From positions 548 to 64,547 of the forward strand of contig JBBSCG010000005.1 of the NCBI GenBank assembly GCA_038250515.1: DNA of 64,000 nt. The letters run 5' to 3'. Below the pieces are notes generated by a model, which worked only from the letters and a program-made list of their open reading frames with translations, made no database searches and was not told the DNA's origin. A program made the position numbers and the translations under genes. Of the stretch, positions 7,863-16,241 are shown piece after piece. The DNA is from Candidatus Limnocylindria bacterium (GTDB taxonomy: Bacteria; Chloroflexota; Limnocylindria; QHBO01). Position 1 is the first letter of the stretch. Every line of letters begins with the position of its first letter.

Positions 7863-9527
7863 TTAGACCTCCATGACGATGGGCAGGATCATCGGTCGGC
7901 GCTTGGTCCGATCGAAGAAGAAGCGCGACAGGGTGTCACGAATCTTGGCCTTGAGGTAGCCCGCCTCAGCCGCATGCGCATCGTTGGGCGCCTGGCGCAG
8001 CGCGCCCGCCAGGTGCGCACGGGCGGCCTCCATGACGGGATCGTTCGGATCGGACAGGAAGCCGCGGCCGATGAGGTCGGGGCCGCTGACGGCCTGGCCG
8101 GTCTGGCCGTCTACGGTCAAGGCGACCATCACCACCCCGTCGCTGGCCAGCATCCGTCGATCGCGCAGCACGACGCCGTCGATCCCATCGATGGTCGCGA
8201 TGCCGTCCACCAGGACGGCGCCCGCCGGCACGCTGCCGGCCAAACGGGCCCGCTTACCGTCGAACTCGACCGTCTGGCCATTCTCCAGGACGAAGATCTT
8301 ATCCACCTCGACGCCGGCACCCTCGGCCAGCAGGGCGTGCTGTACCAGCATCCGGTACTCGCCGTGCACCGGAATGAAGTGGCGCGGCTTGACCAGGCCG
8401 AGCATCAGCTTGAGCTCCTCGCGGGAGCCGTGGCCTGACACGTGGCAGTGCTGCATCGGCTCGTACATGACCATCGCGCCCTCTTTGAACAGGTTGTCGA
8501 TGGTCTTGGCCACCGCCTCCTCGTTGCCCGGAATCGGCGATGCCGAGACGATGACGGTGTCACCCGGCTCGATGGTGATGTTGCGGTGGTCACGGTTGCT
8601 CATGCGGGTGAGCCCCGACATCGGCTCACCCTGCGAGCCCGTGGTCATGACCACCAGCTTGTCCTTCGGCAGCCGCTGCAGCTGGTCCTTCTTGACCAGC
8701 GTTCCGTCGCGCGGATTGAGGTAGCCGAGCTCCACGGCGATCGCGGTGTTCTGCTCCATGCTGCGCCCGAGGGTGACCATCTTGCGACCGTCCTGCGCCG
8801 CAGCGTCGACCACCTGCTGGATGCGCCCGATATTGCTGGCGAACGTCGCCACGATCACGCGCCCCGGCGCCTCGCCGATGAGCCGATCGAGCGAGTTCCC
8901 GACGGTCGACTCCGACAGGGTGTAGCCCTCGCGCTCGGCGCGGGTCGAGTCGGACAACAGGAACTCGACTCCGTGATTGCCGATCTCGGCGATGAGGCCC
9001 AGATCGGCGCGGCGGCCGTCCGGCGGATTGAGGTCGAACTTGAAGTCGCCGGTGTGCACGACGGTGCCGAGCGGCGTGCGAATCGCGTAGCCGACACCGT
9101 CGGGAATCGAGTGGTTGACCCGAAAGGCGGTGACGCTGAAGCCGCCGATGCGCACCTCCACGCCGGGCTCGACCTGGTGCTGGCGCGTCATCTCCAGCAG
9201 CCGATGCTCCTTGAGCTTGCCGGTGATCAGGCCCTGGGTCAGCTTCGTGGCATAGATCGGGGTGCCGGGGATCTTGGGCAGCACGTACGGCAACGCACCG
9301 GTGTGGTCCTCGTGTCCGTGCGTGATGAAGATCGCGCGCACGCGGTCTCGGTTCTGCTCGAGATACGTCACATCGGGAATGACGAGATCGATGCCGAGCA
9401 TCTCGGGCTCGGGAAAGGCGAGCCCGCAATCGACAACCAGGATCTCCCCGGCGGCCTCGATGACCGTGATGTTCTTGCCGACCTCGCCCACCCCACCAAG
9501 CGGGGTGATGCGCAGGGTGTCTGTCAT
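7863..9527 (-). CDS. rnj: Ribonuclease J
   Basis: Metallo-beta-lactamase HxHxDH (ITHGHEDHTGALP), beta-CASP and RNase J C-terminal domains. 554 aa. Confidence 0.9.
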   Translation of the reverse strand: MTDTLRITPLGGVGEVGKNITVIEAAGEILVVDCGLAFPEPEMLGIDLVIPDVTYLEQNRDRVRAIFITHGHEDHTGALPYVLPKIPGTPIYATKLTQGLITGKLKEHRLLEMTRQHQVEPGVEVRIGGFSVTAFRVNHSIPDGVGYAIRTPLGTVVHTGDFKFDLNPPDGRRADLGLIAEIGNHGVEFLLSDSTRAEREGYTLSESTVGNSLDRLIGEAPGRVIVATFASNIGRIQQVVDAAAQDGRKMVTLGRSMEQNTAIAVELGYLNPRDGTLVKKDQLQRLPKDKLVVMTTGSQGEPMSGLTRMSNRDHRNITIEPGDTVIVSASPIPGNEEAVAKTIDNLFKEGAMVMYEPMQHCHVSGHGSREELKLMLGLVKPRHFIPVHGEYRMLVQHALLAEGAGVEVDKIFVLENGQTVEFDGKRARLAGSVPAGAVLVDGIATIDGIDGVVLRDRRMLASDGVVMVALTVDGQTGQAVSGPDLIGRGFLSDPNDPVMEAARAHLAGALRQAPNDAHAAEAGYLKAKIRDTLSRFFFDRTKRRPMILPIVMEV

Positions 9528-9534
9528 GGTGCTC

Positions 9535-10200
9535 CTAGAAGAGAGTCAGCTGTTGCCCTGCGTCCGGCTGCTGATCGGCGCCGGACGGCGCCTCGAGCTG
9601 GATTGACTTGACTGATGCCGCCCGCTCGGCCTCCATGGCCTGTCGAGCGTCACGCAGCGCCACCGGCAGCCTGCTGATGTCACGGAAGAGCGTCTCCCGC
9701 AGGGAAGCCTGGTGCAACGCCGCCGCAGGATGGTACATCGGAAAGATGTGGCGCCCGCCCGATGTTTGAACCTGCCCGTGCACCGAGGATATCCGCGAGC
9801 CCGGCAGGTAGCGCTGCAGCGAGACGCGCCCGAGGGTGACGATCACTGCCGGATCCAGCGCCCCCTCCTGTCGTTCCAGGAACATGCCGCAGGCCGCGAC
9901 CTCGCGTGGCTCCGGGTCGCGGTTGCCCGGCGGCCGGCATTTCACCACGTTGGTGATGAACACGTCGGACCTCGCCCAACCGATGCTGCGCAGCAGCTCG
10001 TCGAGCAGCTGGCCAGCCGGCCCGACGAACGGACGTCCGGTCGCGTCCTCGCGCGCGCCCGGGCCCTCGCCGACGAGCAGCACGTACGAGAGCGGGTTGC
10101 CCTCACCCGGGACGGCACGGGTTCGCCGTTGGCTCAGGGCGCAACGCGTGCAGTCGCGAGCCTCCTCGGCGACCCTTGCGAGCAGCGCCTCGGTGCTCAT
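9535..10200 (-). CDS. udg: Uracil-DNA glycosylase family 4 (4Fe-4S)
   Basis: CxxC...GEGPG...HPAAAL family-4 UDG motifs. Start at internal ATG 10200 with a GGAGGG SD; the upstream portion of the 9535..10551 ORF is rejected. Confidence 0.8.
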   Translation of the reverse strand: MSTEALLARVAEEARDCTRCALSQRRTRAVPGEGNPLSYVLLVGEGPGAREDATGRPFVGPAGQLLDELLRSIGWARSDVFITNVVKCRPPGNRDPEPREVAACGMFLERQEGALDPAVIVTLGRVSLQRYLPGSRISSVHGQVQTSGGRHIFPMYHPAAALHQASLRETLFRDISRLPVALRDARQAMEAERAASVKSIQLEAPSGADQQPDAGQQLTLF

Positions 10201-10236
10201 CGACCTGTGCCGCCCTCCGTGGTGCGGTTGGGAACT

Positions 10237-10256
10237 GGGGCGCGCCCGGCGCGCCC
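10237..10256 (-). terminator. GC-rich palindrome immediately after the pnp stop (GGGCGCGCC/GGCGCGCCC) with no U-tract: possible pnp terminator or processing hairpin
   Basis: Perfect inverted repeat lying between the pnp stop (10263) and the udg start (10200). Confidence 0.3.
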
Positions 10257-10262
10257 ATCGGT

Positions 10263-12875
10263 CTAGGACTCGCCGACTCCGGCCTTCGCCATGTGGCGCT
10301 CCATCGCGGCGCGCCGTGACAGGTTGACCCGACCCATACGATCGATCTCGGTGACGACCACCATCAGCTCGTCGCCGATGCTGACCACGTCCTCGACGCG
10401 CGGCACCCGGTAATCGGCGAGCTGGCTGATGTGGACCAGGCCCTCCTTGCCGGGCAGGATCTCGACGAAGGCACCGAAGTTCATGATCCGGGTCACCTTG
10501 CCGAGGTACTCCTTGCCGACCTCGACGTCGCGGGTCAGGCCCTCGATCCAACGGACCGCCTTGTCCGAGGCCTCGCCCGATGTGGACGCGATCTGGATCG
10601 TGCCGTCGTCCTCGACGTTGATCTGCGTACCGGTCTCGGCGGTGATCTGACGGATCACCTTGCCACCGGCGCCGATGACGTCGCGGATCTTGTCGACCGG
10701 GATCTTAATCGTGATGATCCTCGGCGCGTACTGGCTCAGCTCGCTGCGGCTGGCGCTGATCGTCTCGTTCATCTTGTCGAGGATGAACAGCCGGCCCTTG
10801 CGAGCCTGCTCGAGCGCGTCGCGCAGGATCTCCGGGGTGATGCCCGCGGTCTTGATGTCCATCTGCAGCGCCGTCACACCTTCCGTGGTGCCGGTCACCT
10901 TGAAGTCCATGTCACCGAAGGCGTCTTCCTTGCCGGTGATGTCGGTCAGCACGGCGTAGCGGCCGGTGGCCTGGTCGGTGATCAGGCCCATCGCCACGCC
11001 GCCAACCGGTGCCTTGATCGGCACGCCGGCATCCATCAGGGCCAGGGTGCTGCCACAGGTCGACGCCATCGACGTCGAGCCGTTGCTGCTCACCGCCTCG
11101 CTGACGATGCGGATCACGTACGGGAACTCGTCGACGGTCGGCAGGACCGGCAGCAGCGCCCGCTCGGCGAGCGCGCCGTGGCCGATCTCACGACGGCCGG
11201 GGCCGCGCATGAACTTGGCTTCGCCGACCGAGTAGGGCGGCATGTTGTAGTGGTGGATGTAGCGCTTCTCCGTCTCGGGGCTGATCGTATCGAGCCGCTG
11301 CACGTCGCTCGACGGGCCGAGCGTCGCGATCGATAGCACCTGGGTCTGACCCCGTGTGAACAGGCCCGAGCCGTGCGTACGCGGCAGGATGCCGACCTCG
11401 GCGCTGATCGGCCGGATGGTCGACGTGTCGCGGCCGTCGATGCGGATGCCCTCGGACAGGACCATCTCGCGAACGGTCGCCTTCAGGAGCGCATCCATCA
11501 GCGCTGAACCGATGCCGTGGCGGCGGCGAATGTCCTCGATGCGCTGGCCCTGCTCCGCGTGGTTGTAGCCCTCGCGACCACGGCGAATCTCGTCGGAGAC
11601 GTCCTTGCGGACCGCATCAAGCCGCTCGGCCAGGCCGTCGGTCAGGCTGATGAACAGGTCGGCCGTCGCCTGGGCGTCCGGCATGGCCCGATGCGCCGCC
11701 TCGTGGTCTCGCCCGAAGGCGAAGCGCAGCAGGTCGGCCAGCTTGTAGCTGCCGGCATCGGGATACAGCTGGTAGGCCAGCTCGAGCGTGTCATAGACCG
11801 CCCTGGGCTCCCAGCTCACGTCGTTCGGCAGGTGACGAAGCAGGAACGGCAGGTCGAAGCTGACGTTGTGCGCAACGATCCCCGCGTCGCCGATCCATTC
11901 GACGAACTTCGGCAGCACCTCGGCGGCCGTTGGCGCATTGGCGACGTCCTCGTCGGACAGGCCGTGCACCTGGTGGCCGACGATCGAGCGACCGGGGTTG
12001 ACCAGCGACTCGAAGCGATCGACCACCTGTCCGTCCCGCACGCGCAGCGCGGCCAGATCGACGATATAGCCGTTCTCCGGCTTCATGGCGGTGGTCTCGA
12101 AGTCGAACACCACGAACTCGCTCGAGCCTGAGGCGAGCGCCTTGCCGAGCCTGACTACCGAATCGGCCTTCGGACCGATGAACGGCAGCTTCTTGGGCGT
12201 GCCGGCCGTGGCGGTCAGCTTGTCCTGCAGCTCGATGCTCTTCTGGAGCTCACGCTGGCCGTATTCGATGGCGTCGGCCATCGTCGCCTCCGGCAGGATC
12301 TTGGCGCCGGCCTCGACCATCATCAGGGCGTCGCGCGTGCCGGCCACCACGAGGTCGAGCTGGCTCTCCTCGAGCTGGCTCGTCGTCGGATTGGTGACGA
12401 ACTGGCCGTCGATATACCCGACGCGCACCGCGCCGACCGGGCCGAGGAACGGGATGCCGCTCACCGAGAGCGCCGCCGAGGCGCCGTTCAGGGCGAGAAT
12501 GTCCGGATCGTTCTCCTGGTCCGCCGAGAGGACGGTCAGCACGACCTGGACGTCGTTGCGGTAGCCCTTCGGGAACAGGGGCCGAATCGGTCGATCCGTC
12601 AGGCGCATGGCCAAAATGGCCGCCTCTGACGGGCGCGACTCACGCTTGATGAATCCGCCAGGGATCTTGCCCGCAGCGTACATCCGCTCCTCGTAATCGA
12701 TGGTGAGCGGGAAGAAGTCGGTGCCCTCGCGGGGCTCCTTGCTGGCGACGGCAGTCGCCAGGATCACCGTGTCGCCGTATCGGACGAGCACTGCTCCGTC
12801 GGCCTGTTCGGCCAGCTTTCCCGCCTCGAGCGAGAAGGTCTGGTTGCCGATCTCGGCCTCAACCTTAATTGCCAC
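10263..12875 (-). CDS. pnp: Polynucleotide phosphorylase with an inserted DnaQ-like DEDDh 3'-5' exonuclease domain (870 aa)
   Basis: GTG start with a GGAGGAA SD. RNase PH-1 domain, then an exonuclease insert at about residues 253-412 (nt 11640-12119; Exo I FDFETT, Exo [11 protein letters not shown], Exo [11 protein letters not shown]), then RNase PH-2, KH ([19 protein letters not shown]) and S1 domains. Classic rpsO-pnp arrangement. Confidence 0.9.
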
Positions 12876-13047
12876 TGATTCTCATTCCTCCAGTGATTTC
12901 ATCTGCTTAGAACGTTCGGCGCTCTGACCCACGCATCATCGCTGCGATCAGGCAACGGGGGCGGGCGGCGGTCTGACGGACGCGGCCCCACTTGGTTCGG
13001 ATGCGGGAGCCGGACATCTACACTTTGCGGGTTCACCGCATGTGCAA

Positions 13048-13075
13048 GACCCAGGGCCTCGGAGGCACCTGGGTC
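13048..13075 (-). promoter_or_regulatory. rpsO terminator / pnp leader stem-loop (GACCCAGG-12nt-CCTGGGTC), the expected RNase III / autoregulatory hairpin of the rpsO-pnp intergenic region
   Basis: 8-bp perfect stem 20 nt after the rpsO stop on the minus strand, inside the 218-nt pnp 5' leader. Confidence 0.45.
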
Positions 13076-13093
13076 CAATACATGGTGGTCGAC

Positions 13094-13375
13094 TTAGCGG
13101 CGCAGTCCCAGCCGACCGATCACCGCGCGGTAACGATCGACATCGTTACGGACGAGGTATGCAAGAAGCCGGCGGCGTTGCCCGACGAGCTTCAGCAGTC
13201 CACGGCGCGAGTGGTTGTCGTTCTGGTAGGTGCGCAGATGCTCCGTCAGCGACTTGATCCGCTCGGTGAGCAGTGCGATCTGCACCTCGGGGGAGCCGGT
13301 ATCGCCATCATGGGTGGCGTAGTCTTCGACGATCTCGCTCTTCGCGTCCTTGGCGAGGGGCACACGTTCCTCCAC
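13094..13375 (-). CDS. rpsO: 30S ribosomal protein S15
   Basis: 93 aa. Conserved [42 protein letters not shown] start with an AGGAAA SD. Confidence 0.9.
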
Positions 13376-13445
13376 ATTCGTTTCCTATCGTCGGCCATGG
13401 TATCAGAATTCGCCCCTGGCCGCCGTCGAACGCTTTCCGTACAGA

Positions 13446-14402
13446 CTAGCCACCGATGCCGAGGTAGACGCGTGCCTGCGCCTCGTCTCGACGCATCTGC
13501 TCGATGAGCGCCTGCGCGCCGTCGAAGCGCCGCTCCGCGCGAAGACGCGTCCGTAGATGCACGCCCAATCGAGCACCATACAGGTCACCGTCATAGTCGA
13601 GCAGGTAGACCTCGACGAGCACGCGGCCCTCGTCGTGGAAGGTTGGCCGAACGCCGATGCTGATCAGCGCCGGATGGGCGGGGCCAACCTGCCGCGCGGG
13701 CACCGAGACGGACCCCACGTAGATGCCGAGGGGCGGCATGGCGGGCCGATAGTCGAAGTCGAGGTTCGCGGTCGGGAAGCCCAGCTCACGTCCGCGTCGA
13801 TCCCCCGCCACGACGATGCCCACCAGGAAGGGCGGGCGACTCAGCAGCTCGGTGGCTTCATCGAGCTCGGCAGCGGCAACCGCGTGCCGAATTCGCGTCG
13901 AGGAGACCGGCTCGCCCCCAATGAGCAGGCGATCCACCGCGACGACCTCGAATCCCCGCTCGGCGGCCAGCTTACCCATGCTGTCGAACGTGCCGCCGCG
14001 TCCTCGTCCGAACGCGCTCTGGGGCGTCATGACCAGGTCTCGCAGGTCAATCGCCGGCGCGAGCGCGGCCAGAAACTCCTCGGCCCGCAGCGCGCGCAAC
14101 GCGTCGTCGAAGCGCAGCGGAATTGCCTCATCGATGCCGGCGGCTTCGATGAGCTCAAGGTTCGTGGCCAGCGGAGCAAGTCGCGGCACGACGAGACCGG
14201 CCTGCAGCAGCTCCACGGGCGGTGGGTCGAACACGAGCGCCACGCTGCGCAGGCCGTGCTCCGTGGCGGACGACCGCGTGGCCGAAAGGACGCGCTGGTG
14301 TCCGCGGTGCACGCCATCGAACACACCCATCGTCACCGCGGCCGGACCGAGCGACGGCAGGTCCGCGACAGAACGTGCCAGGCGAGGAACGTCAACCTTC
14401 AT
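13446..14402 (-). CDS. ribF: Bifunctional riboflavin kinase / FMN adenylyltransferase
   Basis: N-terminal FAD synthetase (GVFDGVHRGHQ) and C-terminal riboflavin kinase (GFPTANL...EVYLLDYDGDLYG). Confidence 0.9.
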   Translation of the reverse strand: MKVDVPRLARSVADLPSLGPAAVTMGVFDGVHRGHQRVLSATRSSATEHGLRSVALVFDPPPVELLQAGLVVPRLAPLATNLELIEAAGIDEAIPLRFDDALRALRAEEFLAALAPAIDLRDLVMTPQSAFGRGRGGTFDSMGKLAAERGFEVVAVDRLLIGGEPVSSTRIRHAVAAAELDEATELLSRPPFLVGIVVAGDRRGRELGFPTANLDFDYRPAMPPLGIYVGSVSVPARQVGPAHPALISIGVRPTFHDEGRVLVEVYLLDYDGDLYGARLGVHLRTRLRAERRFDGAQALIEQMRRDEAQARVYLGIGG

Positions 14403-15274
14403 TCCGTCAGCACCTTGTCCGGCTGGAGCATGCCTGCCTGCACTGTCCCGATGCCCAGCAGCCGCCCGTCGGCCAGAACCACGTGACGGCCACTGCCCTC
14501 CATCGCCACCGGCAGCAGCGAGCCGTTGACGAAGTGCCCGGCTTCGTCGCGATCGAGCTGCAGCTGCGGCAGGGTGAGCAGGCCGACCACGGGAATGAGC
14601 CCCTCGGCGATTCGCCCTTCAGCAGCCAGCGCCTCCAGCCGCTCCGGCGTGATGGCGTCGTCGACCCGCAAGCCGGCGGCCTCGGTGCGGCGCAGCGCGG
14701 CGAGGTAGCCGCCGCAGCCAAGCTGTTCACCGAGGTCACGCGCCAGCGCACGAACGTAGGTGCCAGCTCCGCAGCGCAGATCAATCCGAATGTCCGGCCG
14801 GCCGTCAACCGCCTCGACTGAGAGCAGATCGATCCGGGAGATCGAGACCATCCGCGGAGCCAGGTCGAGTGGCTCGCCGGCACGTGCGGCGCGATGCGCG
14901 CGCCGGCCCGCCTGTTTGCGGGCAGAGAACGCGGGCGGACGCTGCGGGAAGCTGCCGACGAACGCCTGCAGCGCCTGCGCGATCGCGTCCACTTCTGGAA
15001 GCGGTCCAGCGACCTGCTCGAGCGGCCCCTGGGAATCATCGGTCGCCGATCGCCAACCCAGCCGGATCACGGCGTCGTAACGCTTCGTGCCGCCGGTCAG
15101 CTCCTCGCTCAGCCGCGTCGCGGCCCCGACCAGGATGGGGAGCACGCCCGAGGCCAGCGGATCAAGCGTGCCGGCATGCCCGATCCGCCGGATGCCGGTC
15201 AGGCGTCGCACCAGGCCGACCATGTCGTGCGAGGTCGGTCCGACCGGCTTGTCGAGGTTAACGACCCCGAGCAT
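14399..15274 (-). CDS. truB: tRNA pseudouridine(55) synthase TruB
   Basis: GVVNLDKPVGPTSHD...GHAGTLDPLASGVL catalytic motif. Start at internal ATG 15274; the track ORF is N-extended into nrnA. Confidence 0.9.
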   Translation of the reverse strand: MLGVVNLDKPVGPTSHDMVGLVRRLTGIRRIGHAGTLDPLASGVLPILVGAATRLSEELTGGTKRYDAVIRLGWRSATDDSQGPLEQVAGPLPEVDAIAQALQAFVGSFPQRPPAFSARKQAGRRAHRAARAGEPLDLAPRMVSISRIDLLSVEAVDGRPDIRIDLRCGAGTYVRALARDLGEQLGCGGYLAALRRTEAAGLRVDDAITPERLEALAAEGRIAEGLIPVVGLLTLPQLQLDRDEAGHFVNGSLLPVAMEGSGRHVVLADGRLLGIGTVQAGMLQPDKVLTE

Positions 15275-16241
15275 CGGCCCTGGAGAGCTCAGCCTCGCAC
15301 TCGACGAGGACGCGCTCACGCGCCTCGGCGAGCGGCAGCGCCAGCGTGCAGGCGGCGGCGCGCGCGTGGCCGCCGCCGCCGAACGCACCGGTGATGGCGA
15401 CGGCGTCAGCCCGTTCGGTGGTGCGCACGCTGGCCCTGGTCACCAGCGCATCGGCCACCTTGAACAGCACCGTCACGTCCGCGGCCTTCGTCGAAGCAAG
15501 CAGATCTACGAATCCCTCCGACGCGGCGGGCTGCGAGTCGGTCAGCTCGAGCATCGCGCCGGTCATGCTGGCGTGCACGATCCGCCCATCGCAGCGCTGA
15601 CCGATGCCCGCCAGCATCAGGCCCCACAGCGCGAGCGTGTCGTACGGCTTATCCGCGTAGACCGCGCGGTTGATGGCCGACAGCGGCGCCCCGGCGTCGA
15701 CCAGCTCGGCGGCGACGCGCAGCGTGCGGGGCGTGGCGTTGGGATGCGCGAACGTGTGCGTGTCCTGGACGATGCCGGCCATGAGCAGCGTCGCGAGCTC
15801 CGCGTCGAGCTGCACACCCAGCACCGGCAGCAGCAGCGCGACGAGCTCGCAGGTCGCCGCCGCGGTCGGCTCGATGAGCTGCGCCACGCCGAAGCCGGGA
15901 TTGCTGACGTGGTGGTCGATATTGACGATCCGCGCCTTCGCAAGCCAGTTGGCATGCTCCCGGCCGATGCTGCCGGTGCGCGACAGGTCGCCGGCGTCGA
16001 CGATGACCGCCACGTCCGGCTCGAGGCCCGGGGCCGTGCGGACGTCCTCGATACGCGGCAGGAACGCCAGGAACGGGGGCGGCGGGTCGCCGCATACCAC
16101 CTCGGCCTGCTTGCCGAGGCGCTCAGCCGCCAGGCGGATGGCCATCCCCGCTCCGAGCGTGTCAGCGTCGGGATTCTCGTGGCAGATGGCCGTCACTCGC
16201 TCGGCCGACGCAATGACGTTCGCGACGTCGGCCAGGCTCAT
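15258..16241 (-). CDS. nrnA: DHH/DHHA1 phosphoesterase NrnA (nanoRNase / pAp phosphatase)
   Basis: DHH motifs (ICHENPDADTLG, NIDHH) and a DHHA1 GGGH tail. Sits in the conserved rbfA-nrnA-truB position. Confidence 0.85.
   Translation of the reverse strand: MSLADVANVIASAERVTAICHENPDADTLGAGMAIRLAAERLGKQAEVVCGDPPPPFLAFLPRIEDVRTAPGLEPDVAVIVDAGDLSRTGSIGREHANWLAKARIVNIDHHVSNPGFGVAQLIEPTAAATCELVALLLPVLGVQLDAELATLLMAGIVQDTHTFAHPNATPRTLRVAAELVDAGAPLSAINRAVYADKPYDTLALWGLMLAGIGQRCDGRIVHASMTGAMLELTDSQPAASEGFVDLLASTKAADVTVLFKVADALVTRASVRTTERADAVAITGAFGGGGHARAAACTLALPLAEARERVLVECEAELSRADARGR

Follow-up and report, generated by a model that had tools for sequence, protein, structure and literature searches.

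A DEDDh exonuclease domain within the helical domain of PNPase in Candidatus Limnocylindria

Polynucleotide phosphorylase (PNPase) is one of the best-studied RNA-decay enzymes and one of the most conserved. From bacteria to human mitochondria, its plan of domains has been regarded as fixed. In contig JBBSCG010000005.1 of a Candidatus Limnocylindria bacterium, we analysed a stretch of 64,000 nucleotides (nt), called here the window. An earlier note, made from its sequence alone, described a pnp gene that departs from this plan, with a complete 3'-5' exonuclease domain lying in the middle of the PNPase. Is this architecture real, how are the two enzymes joined, do both nuclease sites look functional, and what could the added site do?

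An exonuclease domain inserted in PNPase

The pnp open reading frame (ORF) runs without interruption for 870 amino acids (aa) at 10263..12875 of the window, stop codon included, on the minus strand, as do all genes and features of the window that are given with coordinates below. It opens with a GTG start codon that has GGAGGA 10 nt to its 5' side. Pfam finds, in this order, RNase_PH, RNase_PH_C, RNase_T (PF00929), the tail of the PNPase helical domain, a second PH domain, KH and S1. Two RNase PH domains joined by a helical domain and followed by KH and S1 are the layout of a PNPase, and the whole protein scores 978 bits against the PNPase equivalog of NCBIfam (TIGR03591; curated cut-off 525), in two stretches that are split by the insert. 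The earlier description of a single unbroken 870-codon frame, with PH-1, PH-2, KH and S1 all present and colinear, is borne out by the ORF, the Pfam order and TIGR03591.

What splits the match is a 3'-5' exonuclease domain of the DEDDh superfamily, of DnaQ-epsilon/PolC/DinG type, at aa 252-412 (11640..12122), recognised by PF00929, TIGR00573, PDB sequence matches, its fold and its clean excision. The earlier note had placed it at about 11640-12119, which equals aa 253-412 exactly, and the three motifs that it listed are found where it put them: Exo I as FDFETT (aa 257-262, with D258 and E260; 12090..12107), Exo II as HNVSFD (aa 336-341, with D341; 11853..11870) and Exo III-epsilon as HRAMPD (aa 395-400, with the general base H395 and the catalytic D400; 11676..11693). 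The DxE of Exo I, the D of Exo II and the Hx4D of Exo III-epsilon are the residues that define a DEDDh enzyme. A profile search, which the note had suggested as a check, recovers PF00929 at full length with the catalytic residues aligned (aa 255-408; all 164 profile positions; 88.2 bits, cut-off 24). The G+C content of the insert region is 0.66-0.69, no different from that of its flanks, and tblastn detects no paralogue of the insert in the window, only the self-match.

The join between the two parts is clean. In the native protein the PNPase helical-domain profile (PF03726) covers the last helix only (aa 457-483) and scores 21.3 bits, below its cut-off of 24.6. With the insert removed it rises to 26.3-27.0 bits. 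In silico excision of aa 252-412 leaves a 709-aa product with a single-stretch TIGR03591 match of 992 bits, in which residues 9-695 align to positions 2-688 of 689. The single-stretch match and the rise of PF03726 therefore identify the DEDDh domain as a precise insertion in the loop after helix 1 of the helical domain, at no cost to the host sequence, none of which is lost.

The predicted structure places the boundaries at the same points. Separate alignments were used for the full-length protein and for the insert. The AlphaFold2 monomer model of the full chain has a mean predicted local distance difference test score (pLDDT) of 90.5 and a predicted template modelling score (pTM) of 0.85. 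In it, a short helix at aa 237-248 follows the long helix that closes the first PH domain; this is helix 1 of the PNPase helical (all-alpha) domain (12132..12167), N-terminal to the insert. The exonuclease fold then runs from strands at 253-289 to a helix at 397-412, and helices 415-435, 439-453 and 457-475 lie between it and the second PH domain. These are helices 2-4 of the helical domain (aa 415-475; 11451..11633), the last of them corresponding to PF03726 positions 55-81. The model thus has four linker helices, one before the insert and three after, and the helical residues outside the exonuclease total about 79, the normal length of a PNPase helical domain. Both ends of the insert are joined to the host by short links, and the high pTM suggests that its placement is fixed rather than tethered.

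We also asked to which branch of the DEDDh superfamily the insert belongs. Its best NCBIfam families are PRK07883 ('DEDD exonuclease domain-containing protein', 142 bits), the DinG exonuclease and the PolC exonuclease, and it passes the domain-level epsilon family TIGR00573 (77.9 bits, cut-off 71.5). Whole-protein equivalogs stay below their cut-offs (81 against 222.7 bits for TIGR01406 dnaQ, 114 against 1043 for TIGR01405 PolC and 122 against 789 for PRK08074 DinG), and the insert has only the exonuclease module in common with those proteins. Its closest solved relative by sequence is the exonuclease domain of T. maritima PolC (2p1j, E 3e-24). The other PDB sequence matches are to PolC, DinG, Pol III epsilon, Cas2-DEDDh and Exo X; Orn and RNase T are absent from these matches (E<=1e-3) and from the 25 best NCBIfam families.

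Comparison of folds gives the same picture. The insert was modelled alone (pLDDT 92.8) and compared with known structures by Foldseek. The best match is the DinG exonuclease domain of S. aureus (8zef; template modelling (TM) score 0.85, root mean square deviation (rmsd) 1.9 Å), followed by PolC (TM 0.84), a CRISPR-associated DnaQ domain (0.83) and epsilon (0.80). The matches to DinG, PolC and epsilon, at TM 0.80-0.85 and rmsd 1.8-2.5 Å, are those of the RNase H-like alpha/beta fold of the DnaQ superfamily. RNase T comes only in 37th place (TM 0.77), and the top 50 fold matches do not include Orn. Neither by sequence nor by fold does the insert fall in the Orn/RNase T subfamily, and on its sequence and predicted fold it belongs to the monomeric, module-type DnaQ-epsilon/PolC/DinG branch.

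The earlier note had named an Orn/RNase T/DnaQ fold. The DEDDh DnaQ fold stands, but the nearest kin are DnaQ-epsilon, PolC and DinG, not Orn or RNase T; the idea of a built-in nanoRNase is therefore an analogy rather than a family assignment, and is weakened. Orn and RNase T are homodimers with shared active sites, and such a two-fold dimer is hard to reconcile with the three-fold PNPase ring. The PolC exonuclease, for its part, is itself inserted in another PolC domain.

Distribution and conservation of the two nuclease sites

How widespread is this architecture? We scanned GTDB, with one genome per species, using the insert alignment as the query, and found the insert in at least 130 species genomes. 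The best 80 matches, whose loci were fetched, are 74-89% identical over all 234 residues, and nearly all matches are labelled as Candidatus Limnocylindria, Chloroflexota or Chloroflexia metagenome-assembled genomes (MAGs). The full protein was also compared with 1.84 billion cluster representatives in an exhaustive HMMER search, of which the best 150 were examined. This added one further full-length insert-bearing cluster (P0074, 864 aa, 59% identity), together with insert-bearing fragments from two further lineages (L085 and L086). The remaining close PNPases match the query in two stretches, that is, without the insert; the closest of them that the search returned is P0075 (61% identity). 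The NCBI name of P0074 (MFZ9702886.1), found at locus L084, is 'polyribonucleotide nucleotidyltransferase [Candidatus Limnocylindrus sp.]'. Both the soil and the freshwater branch of the class Candidatus Limnocylindria have the insert, and in neither search, the GTDB scan or the best 150 cluster representatives, was it seen outside that class. Insert regions of pnp that share 75-85% identity with the Limnocylindria one also occur in several MAGs labelled Steroidobacteraceae, Zixiibacteriota, Dormibacterota, Methylomirabilota or Angelobacter (L007, L018, L030, L031, L076, L077 and L081); most likely these are cases of bin contamination or mislabelling and not a broader distribution.

Public records give the Limnocylindria protein the plain PNPase name, 'polyribonucleotide nucleotidyltransferase', and this annotation hides a second nuclease. 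The survey of the clade that the earlier note had proposed therefore has a divided outcome: the architecture is lineage-wide and already present in NCBI as plain PNPase, but it is undescribed in the open-access literature. Searches there turned up no account of a PNPase-DEDD fusion, and a recent Limnocylindria genomics paper leaves it unmentioned. The note's remark that it knew of no described PNPase-exonuclease fusion agrees with this literature and with the solved structures.

The catalytic residues of the insert are conserved throughout. D258, E260, D341, H395 and D400 are invariant in the alignment of 52 intact sequences, and all five are also kept in Limnocylindrus, L085 and L086. An apparent H395P change in L085 was rejected as a local frameshift artefact, the alternative frame reading AHRALPDAEATAEL. 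Judged from these sequences the insert is under purifying selection, with a pairwise ratio of nonsynonymous to synonymous substitution rates (dN/dS) of 0.20 in the exonuclease, compared to 0.16-0.17 in the PH domains and 0.13 in KH and S1. Between the window protein and that of Limnocylindrus, identity falls to 39% in the exonuclease against 68-70% in the PH cores, with the motifs retained. Distances in the exonuclease and in the core co-vary (Mantel r 0.70, p 0.001), in agreement with a single ancestral insertion followed by vertical inheritance.

The host enzyme is equally well preserved. D651, D657, K659, R561/R562 and S600/S602 are invariant in the alignment with canonical PNPases, which accounts for the metal ligands and for the RREIGHG and SxS phosphate-binding motifs of the phosphorolytic site. 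The metal site (10899..10928) equates D651, D657 and K659 with D486, D492 and K494 of E. coli, at a consistent offset to the 3gcm sequence; the roles of the E. coli residues are known (PMC2723993). It lies in the second, catalytic RNase PH domain (aa 476-710; 10746..11450), as do RREIGHG (aa 561-567; 11175-11195) and SNGSTS (aa 597-602; 11070-11087). The first RNase PH domain (aa 1-142, with the Pfam RNase_PH match at 14-142; 12450..12875) contains F75-I76-K77-R78, read directly from the sequence as the equivalent of the FFRR loop, and is followed by RNase_PH_C (aa 145-208; 12252..12443). The KH domain (aa 721-778; 10542..10715) and the S1 domain (aa 784-855; 10311..10526) complete the chain. 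Accordingly, the host PNPase is canonical in full and predicted to be catalytically competent, and the inserted exonuclease is apparently active as well.

Possible roles of the second nuclease

What might a second nuclease do in PNPase? We propose, with about an even chance of being right, that the pnp product is a bifunctional phosphorolytic and hydrolytic 3'-5' exonuclease, whose hydrolytic site finishes or rescues RNA 3' ends where phosphorolysis fails. A monomeric DnaQ-type DEDDh domain of about 161 residues would have entered the helical-domain loop once, in the ancestor of Candidatus Limnocylindria, and would have been active since. Published structures of PNPase show the helical domain on the opposite face of the ring from KH and S1, where it helps to form a side pore that gives access to the active site and has been proposed as a route for nucleoside diphosphates and phosphate (PMC2723993). 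From this position, the short links and the high pTM, we infer that the three DEDDh sites of the trimer lie on the distal face near the pores; three metal-dependent hydrolytic sites would thus crown the face opposite the KH/S1 side where RNA enters. The earlier suggestion of an exonuclease at the channel exit is consistent, as a predicted placement, with those structures.

RNA decay in cis with PNPase would be the likeliest job of the domain. The products of processive exoribonucleases include short oligonucleotides, whose removal depends on a further enzyme (PMC9779919). The domain could hydrolyse the 3' nucleotides that phosphorolysis cannot finish, whether on short limit oligonucleotides, at stalled ends or beside structure, and its release of nucleoside monophosphates would be independent of phosphate. 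Exonuclease activity, position on the trimer, RNA as the substrate and hand-over between the sites are all what we infer, and beside this reading stand three rival explanations of the same gene.

One of these is that the long ORF is a chimeric assembly, or the product of a frameshift joining pnp to a separate exonuclease gene. Database homologues might seem to favour this: most of the close ones appear as fragments, and when the insert plus flanking sequence was searched against proteins, every match was below 450 aa and no full-length homologue came back. The fragments, however, come from assemblies that break every neighbour gene. In these frameshift-rich long-read metagenome assemblies (L001-L003, L085 and L086; ENA ERZ250394xx-ERZ250395xx) truB, rnj and pnp, for example, are split and ribF is fused to rpsO, and such assemblies are the reason for the many spurious fragments of this pnp in the databases. 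The fused gene is nevertheless colinear at the DNA level in three of them, and L085 and L086 are noisy but colinear too. A naturally split gene was considered and rejected on the same grounds, the neighbours being broken in the same assemblies and the DNA colinear. Intact ORFs of 860-892 aa are present in 51 of the 80 loci fetched (the best 80 of at least 130 GTDB species genomes), from independent short-read and long-read assemblies. PNPase sequence flanks the insert on both sides, and its excision gives back a perfect PNPase. The agreement across independent assemblies excludes an assembly artefact, which we regard as wholly implausible. A gene that is real could still encode an insert that is catalytically silent, a structural, regulatory or binding module that gates the side pore or recruits partners. 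The helical domain is known to affect both how active PNPase is and how the active site is reached (PMC2723993), and one long PNPase (P0084) has accommodated about 155 aa of non-enzymatic helical expansion at the loop where the Limnocylindria insert lies. Against a silent module stand the five catalytic residues, invariant in 52 sequences and kept even at 39% domain identity, and a dN/dS of 0.20, near that of the catalytic PH domains. Inactive DEDD-like domains usually lose their catalytic residues. Because these residues are invariant, a silent module is disfavoured, and we consider it very improbable.

A working exonuclease need not act on RNA alone. Since the insert is of the DnaQ-epsilon/PolC/DinG type, DNA or RNA-DNA hybrids are a live alternative substrate and the chief rival reading, although on balance we think them rather unlikely. 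PNPase would then be a platform for DNA 3'-end processing or for R-loop removal in repair, its DnaQ-type domain hydrolytically trimming 3' single-stranded DNA ends or the RNA strand of hybrids. The nearest kin of the insert are DNA-directed, both by sequence (PolC 2p1j, Pol III epsilon, Exo X) and by fold (DinG 8zef, the CRISPR-associated DnaQ domain), and do not include Orn or RNase T. The DEDD domain of B. subtilis DinG degrades single-stranded DNA and, in hybrids, the RNA strand, whereas with Mg2+ it leaves free single-stranded RNA undegraded (PMC12525004). PNPase itself degrades and extends single-stranded DNA and contributes, in B. subtilis and E. coli, to the repair of double-strand breaks (PMC2709576, PMC3241651, PMC5379764). 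Moreover, a gene for a family-4-type uracil-DNA glycosylase (udg; PF03167; 9535..10200) begins 62 nt 3' of the pnp stop and, in 72 of the 73 soil-clade loci with room for it (L004-L083), is the next gene 3' of pnp in the same orientation. From this adjacency udg may be co-transcribed with pnp, and the pairing is a weak hint of a link to DNA. The adjacency is absent from the Candidatus Limnocylindrus locus (L084), where the insert persists. The conserved cluster, nusA-infB-(rbfA)-DHH/DHHA1-truB-ribF-rpsO-pnp, is followed by udg, rnj (RNase J) and ftsK; its other members are RNA and translation genes, and they give pnp an RNA context. RNA decay is also the main role of PNPase wherever studied, and sugar specificity within DEDDh cannot be predicted from sequence similarity. 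The DNA-directed kin and the neighbouring udg do weigh against finishing of RNA ends as the role of the domain, and so does a third observation: a DHH/DHHA1 (NrnA-like) nanoRNase gene is already encoded in the cluster, at 15258-16241, 2.4 kb from the pnp start, just as the earlier note had said. Clearance of nanoRNA may therefore do without the insert.

If the bifunctional RNA exonuclease is nonetheless the right reading, it can be carried one step further. The protein might be a self-contained, exosome-like decay machine, into which RNA would enter at the KH/S1 face, be phosphorolysed in the ring and have its leftovers passed through the distal opening or the side pore to the DEDDh site. We offer this extension tentatively, and on the doubtful side. 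If true, the leftovers would be limit oligonucleotides, stalled structured ends and damaged ends, and RNA decay could continue under phosphate scarcity. It would also represent a bacterial convergence, in a single polypeptide, on the eukaryotic division of labour between a PH-like ring and a hydrolytic nuclease.

The surroundings of pnp show several further features. Directly upstream lies rpsO, encoding ribosomal protein S15 (13094..13375), as part of the conserved rpsO-pnp pair. The 218-nt leader between the two genes contains a strong GC-rich hairpin, GGACCCAGG...CCUGGGUC, at 13047-13076, 17 nt past the rpsO stop and without a U tract; the leader has a folding z-score of -2.0 and no Rfam match. 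By analogy with the E. coli rpsO-pnp leader, this hairpin may be a processing or attenuation element. Rfam has no family at its gathering score in the whole 64-kb window, and scans with sigma-70 promoter and intrinsic-terminator consensus found nothing in 9400-13600. These empty scans agree with a high-GC Chloroflexota genome that has non-canonical signals. The DHH/DHHA1 gene is located between infB/rbfA and truB, and other Terrabacteria have NrnA/CnpB-type nanoRNase genes at the same cluster position. As predicted, this gene and truB overlap by about 130 nt, its 3' end reaching past the truB start; probably the start of one of the two genes was called too far upstream.

Comparison with known systems

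Both parts of the Limnocylindria protein come from well-known families; it is their combination that is unexpected for a textbook enzyme and that is conserved across a class. Canonical PNPases (TIGR03591; E. coli 3GCM/7OGL, C. crescentus 4AM3/4AIM, S. antibioticus 1E3P and M. tuberculosis 8WXF) share with it PH1, the helical domain, PH2, KH and S1 in colinear order. They also share the fold (TM 0.76-0.92, target-normalised), the metal ligands, the phosphate-binding motifs and the rpsO-pnp pair. Among the best 150 representatives, the Limnocylindria PNPase alone has a 161-residue enzymatic domain inside its helical domain, and none of the solved PNPase chains from the fold search (510-730 residues) has the insert.

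Other long PNPases grow by added S1 or KH repeats, tails or helices; among the same 150 representatives none carries a nuclease domain, and only the Limnocylindria protein has gained a nuclease site. For example, P0087 and P0090 have three S1 domains each and P0131 has three KH domains. In P0209 (914 aa) the second PH region is interrupted at 526-660 by a GNAT acetyltransferase domain (PF13302). In P0084 (899 aa), which also has a second KH, the expansion of about 155 aa in the helical-domain loop is K/E-rich. The helical-domain loop is a permissive site.

The insert shares Exo I, Exo II, Exo III-epsilon and its fold with the exonucleases of PolC, DinG and Pol III epsilon, which are likewise modules of larger proteins. 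Their hosts are a DNA polymerase or helicase, whereas the Limnocylindria host is a phosphorolytic RNA exonuclease. Orn/REXO2 and RNase T have the DEDDh superfamily and two-metal chemistry in common with the insert but are a different family. The uncultured class, abundant in soils and lakes, has added a chemically different 3'-5' nuclease to PNPase, and selection has maintained it. Should both sites be active, each trimer would have six exonuclease sites of two kinds, and the protein would be a natural experiment in the coupling of phosphorolytic and hydrolytic decay. It offers a testable system for the hand-on of limit oligonucleotides or stalled 3' ends, and for DnaQ-type reinforcement of the DNA-repair side activities of PNPase.

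Elsewhere the same coupling is achieved by separate proteins, as in the exosome with Rrp6 and Rrp44, the degradosome with RNase D, and mitochondrial PNPase with REXO2. Rrp6, a DEDD enzyme, sits on the eukaryotic exosome. REXO2 disposes of the short RNAs that the mitochondrial PNPase-SUV3 degradosome leaves behind (PMC9779919), and RNase D, also a DEDD enzyme, is a component of the Caulobacter degradosome along with PNPase (PMC4245959), a non-covalent precedent. The exosome, with its PH-like ring, and the Caulobacter degradosome thus combine, as Limnocylindria does, an RNase PH-type ring with a hydrolytic 3'-5' exonuclease. Their partners, however, are separate polypeptides, bound non-covalently and drawn from the DEDDy/RNase D branch or the RNase II family, while the Limnocylindria exonuclease is of the epsilon type. 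Finally, the ring of the eukaryotic exosome is catalytically inert, whereas the Limnocylindria protein holds both activities in one chain and both appear, from their conserved residues, to be active.

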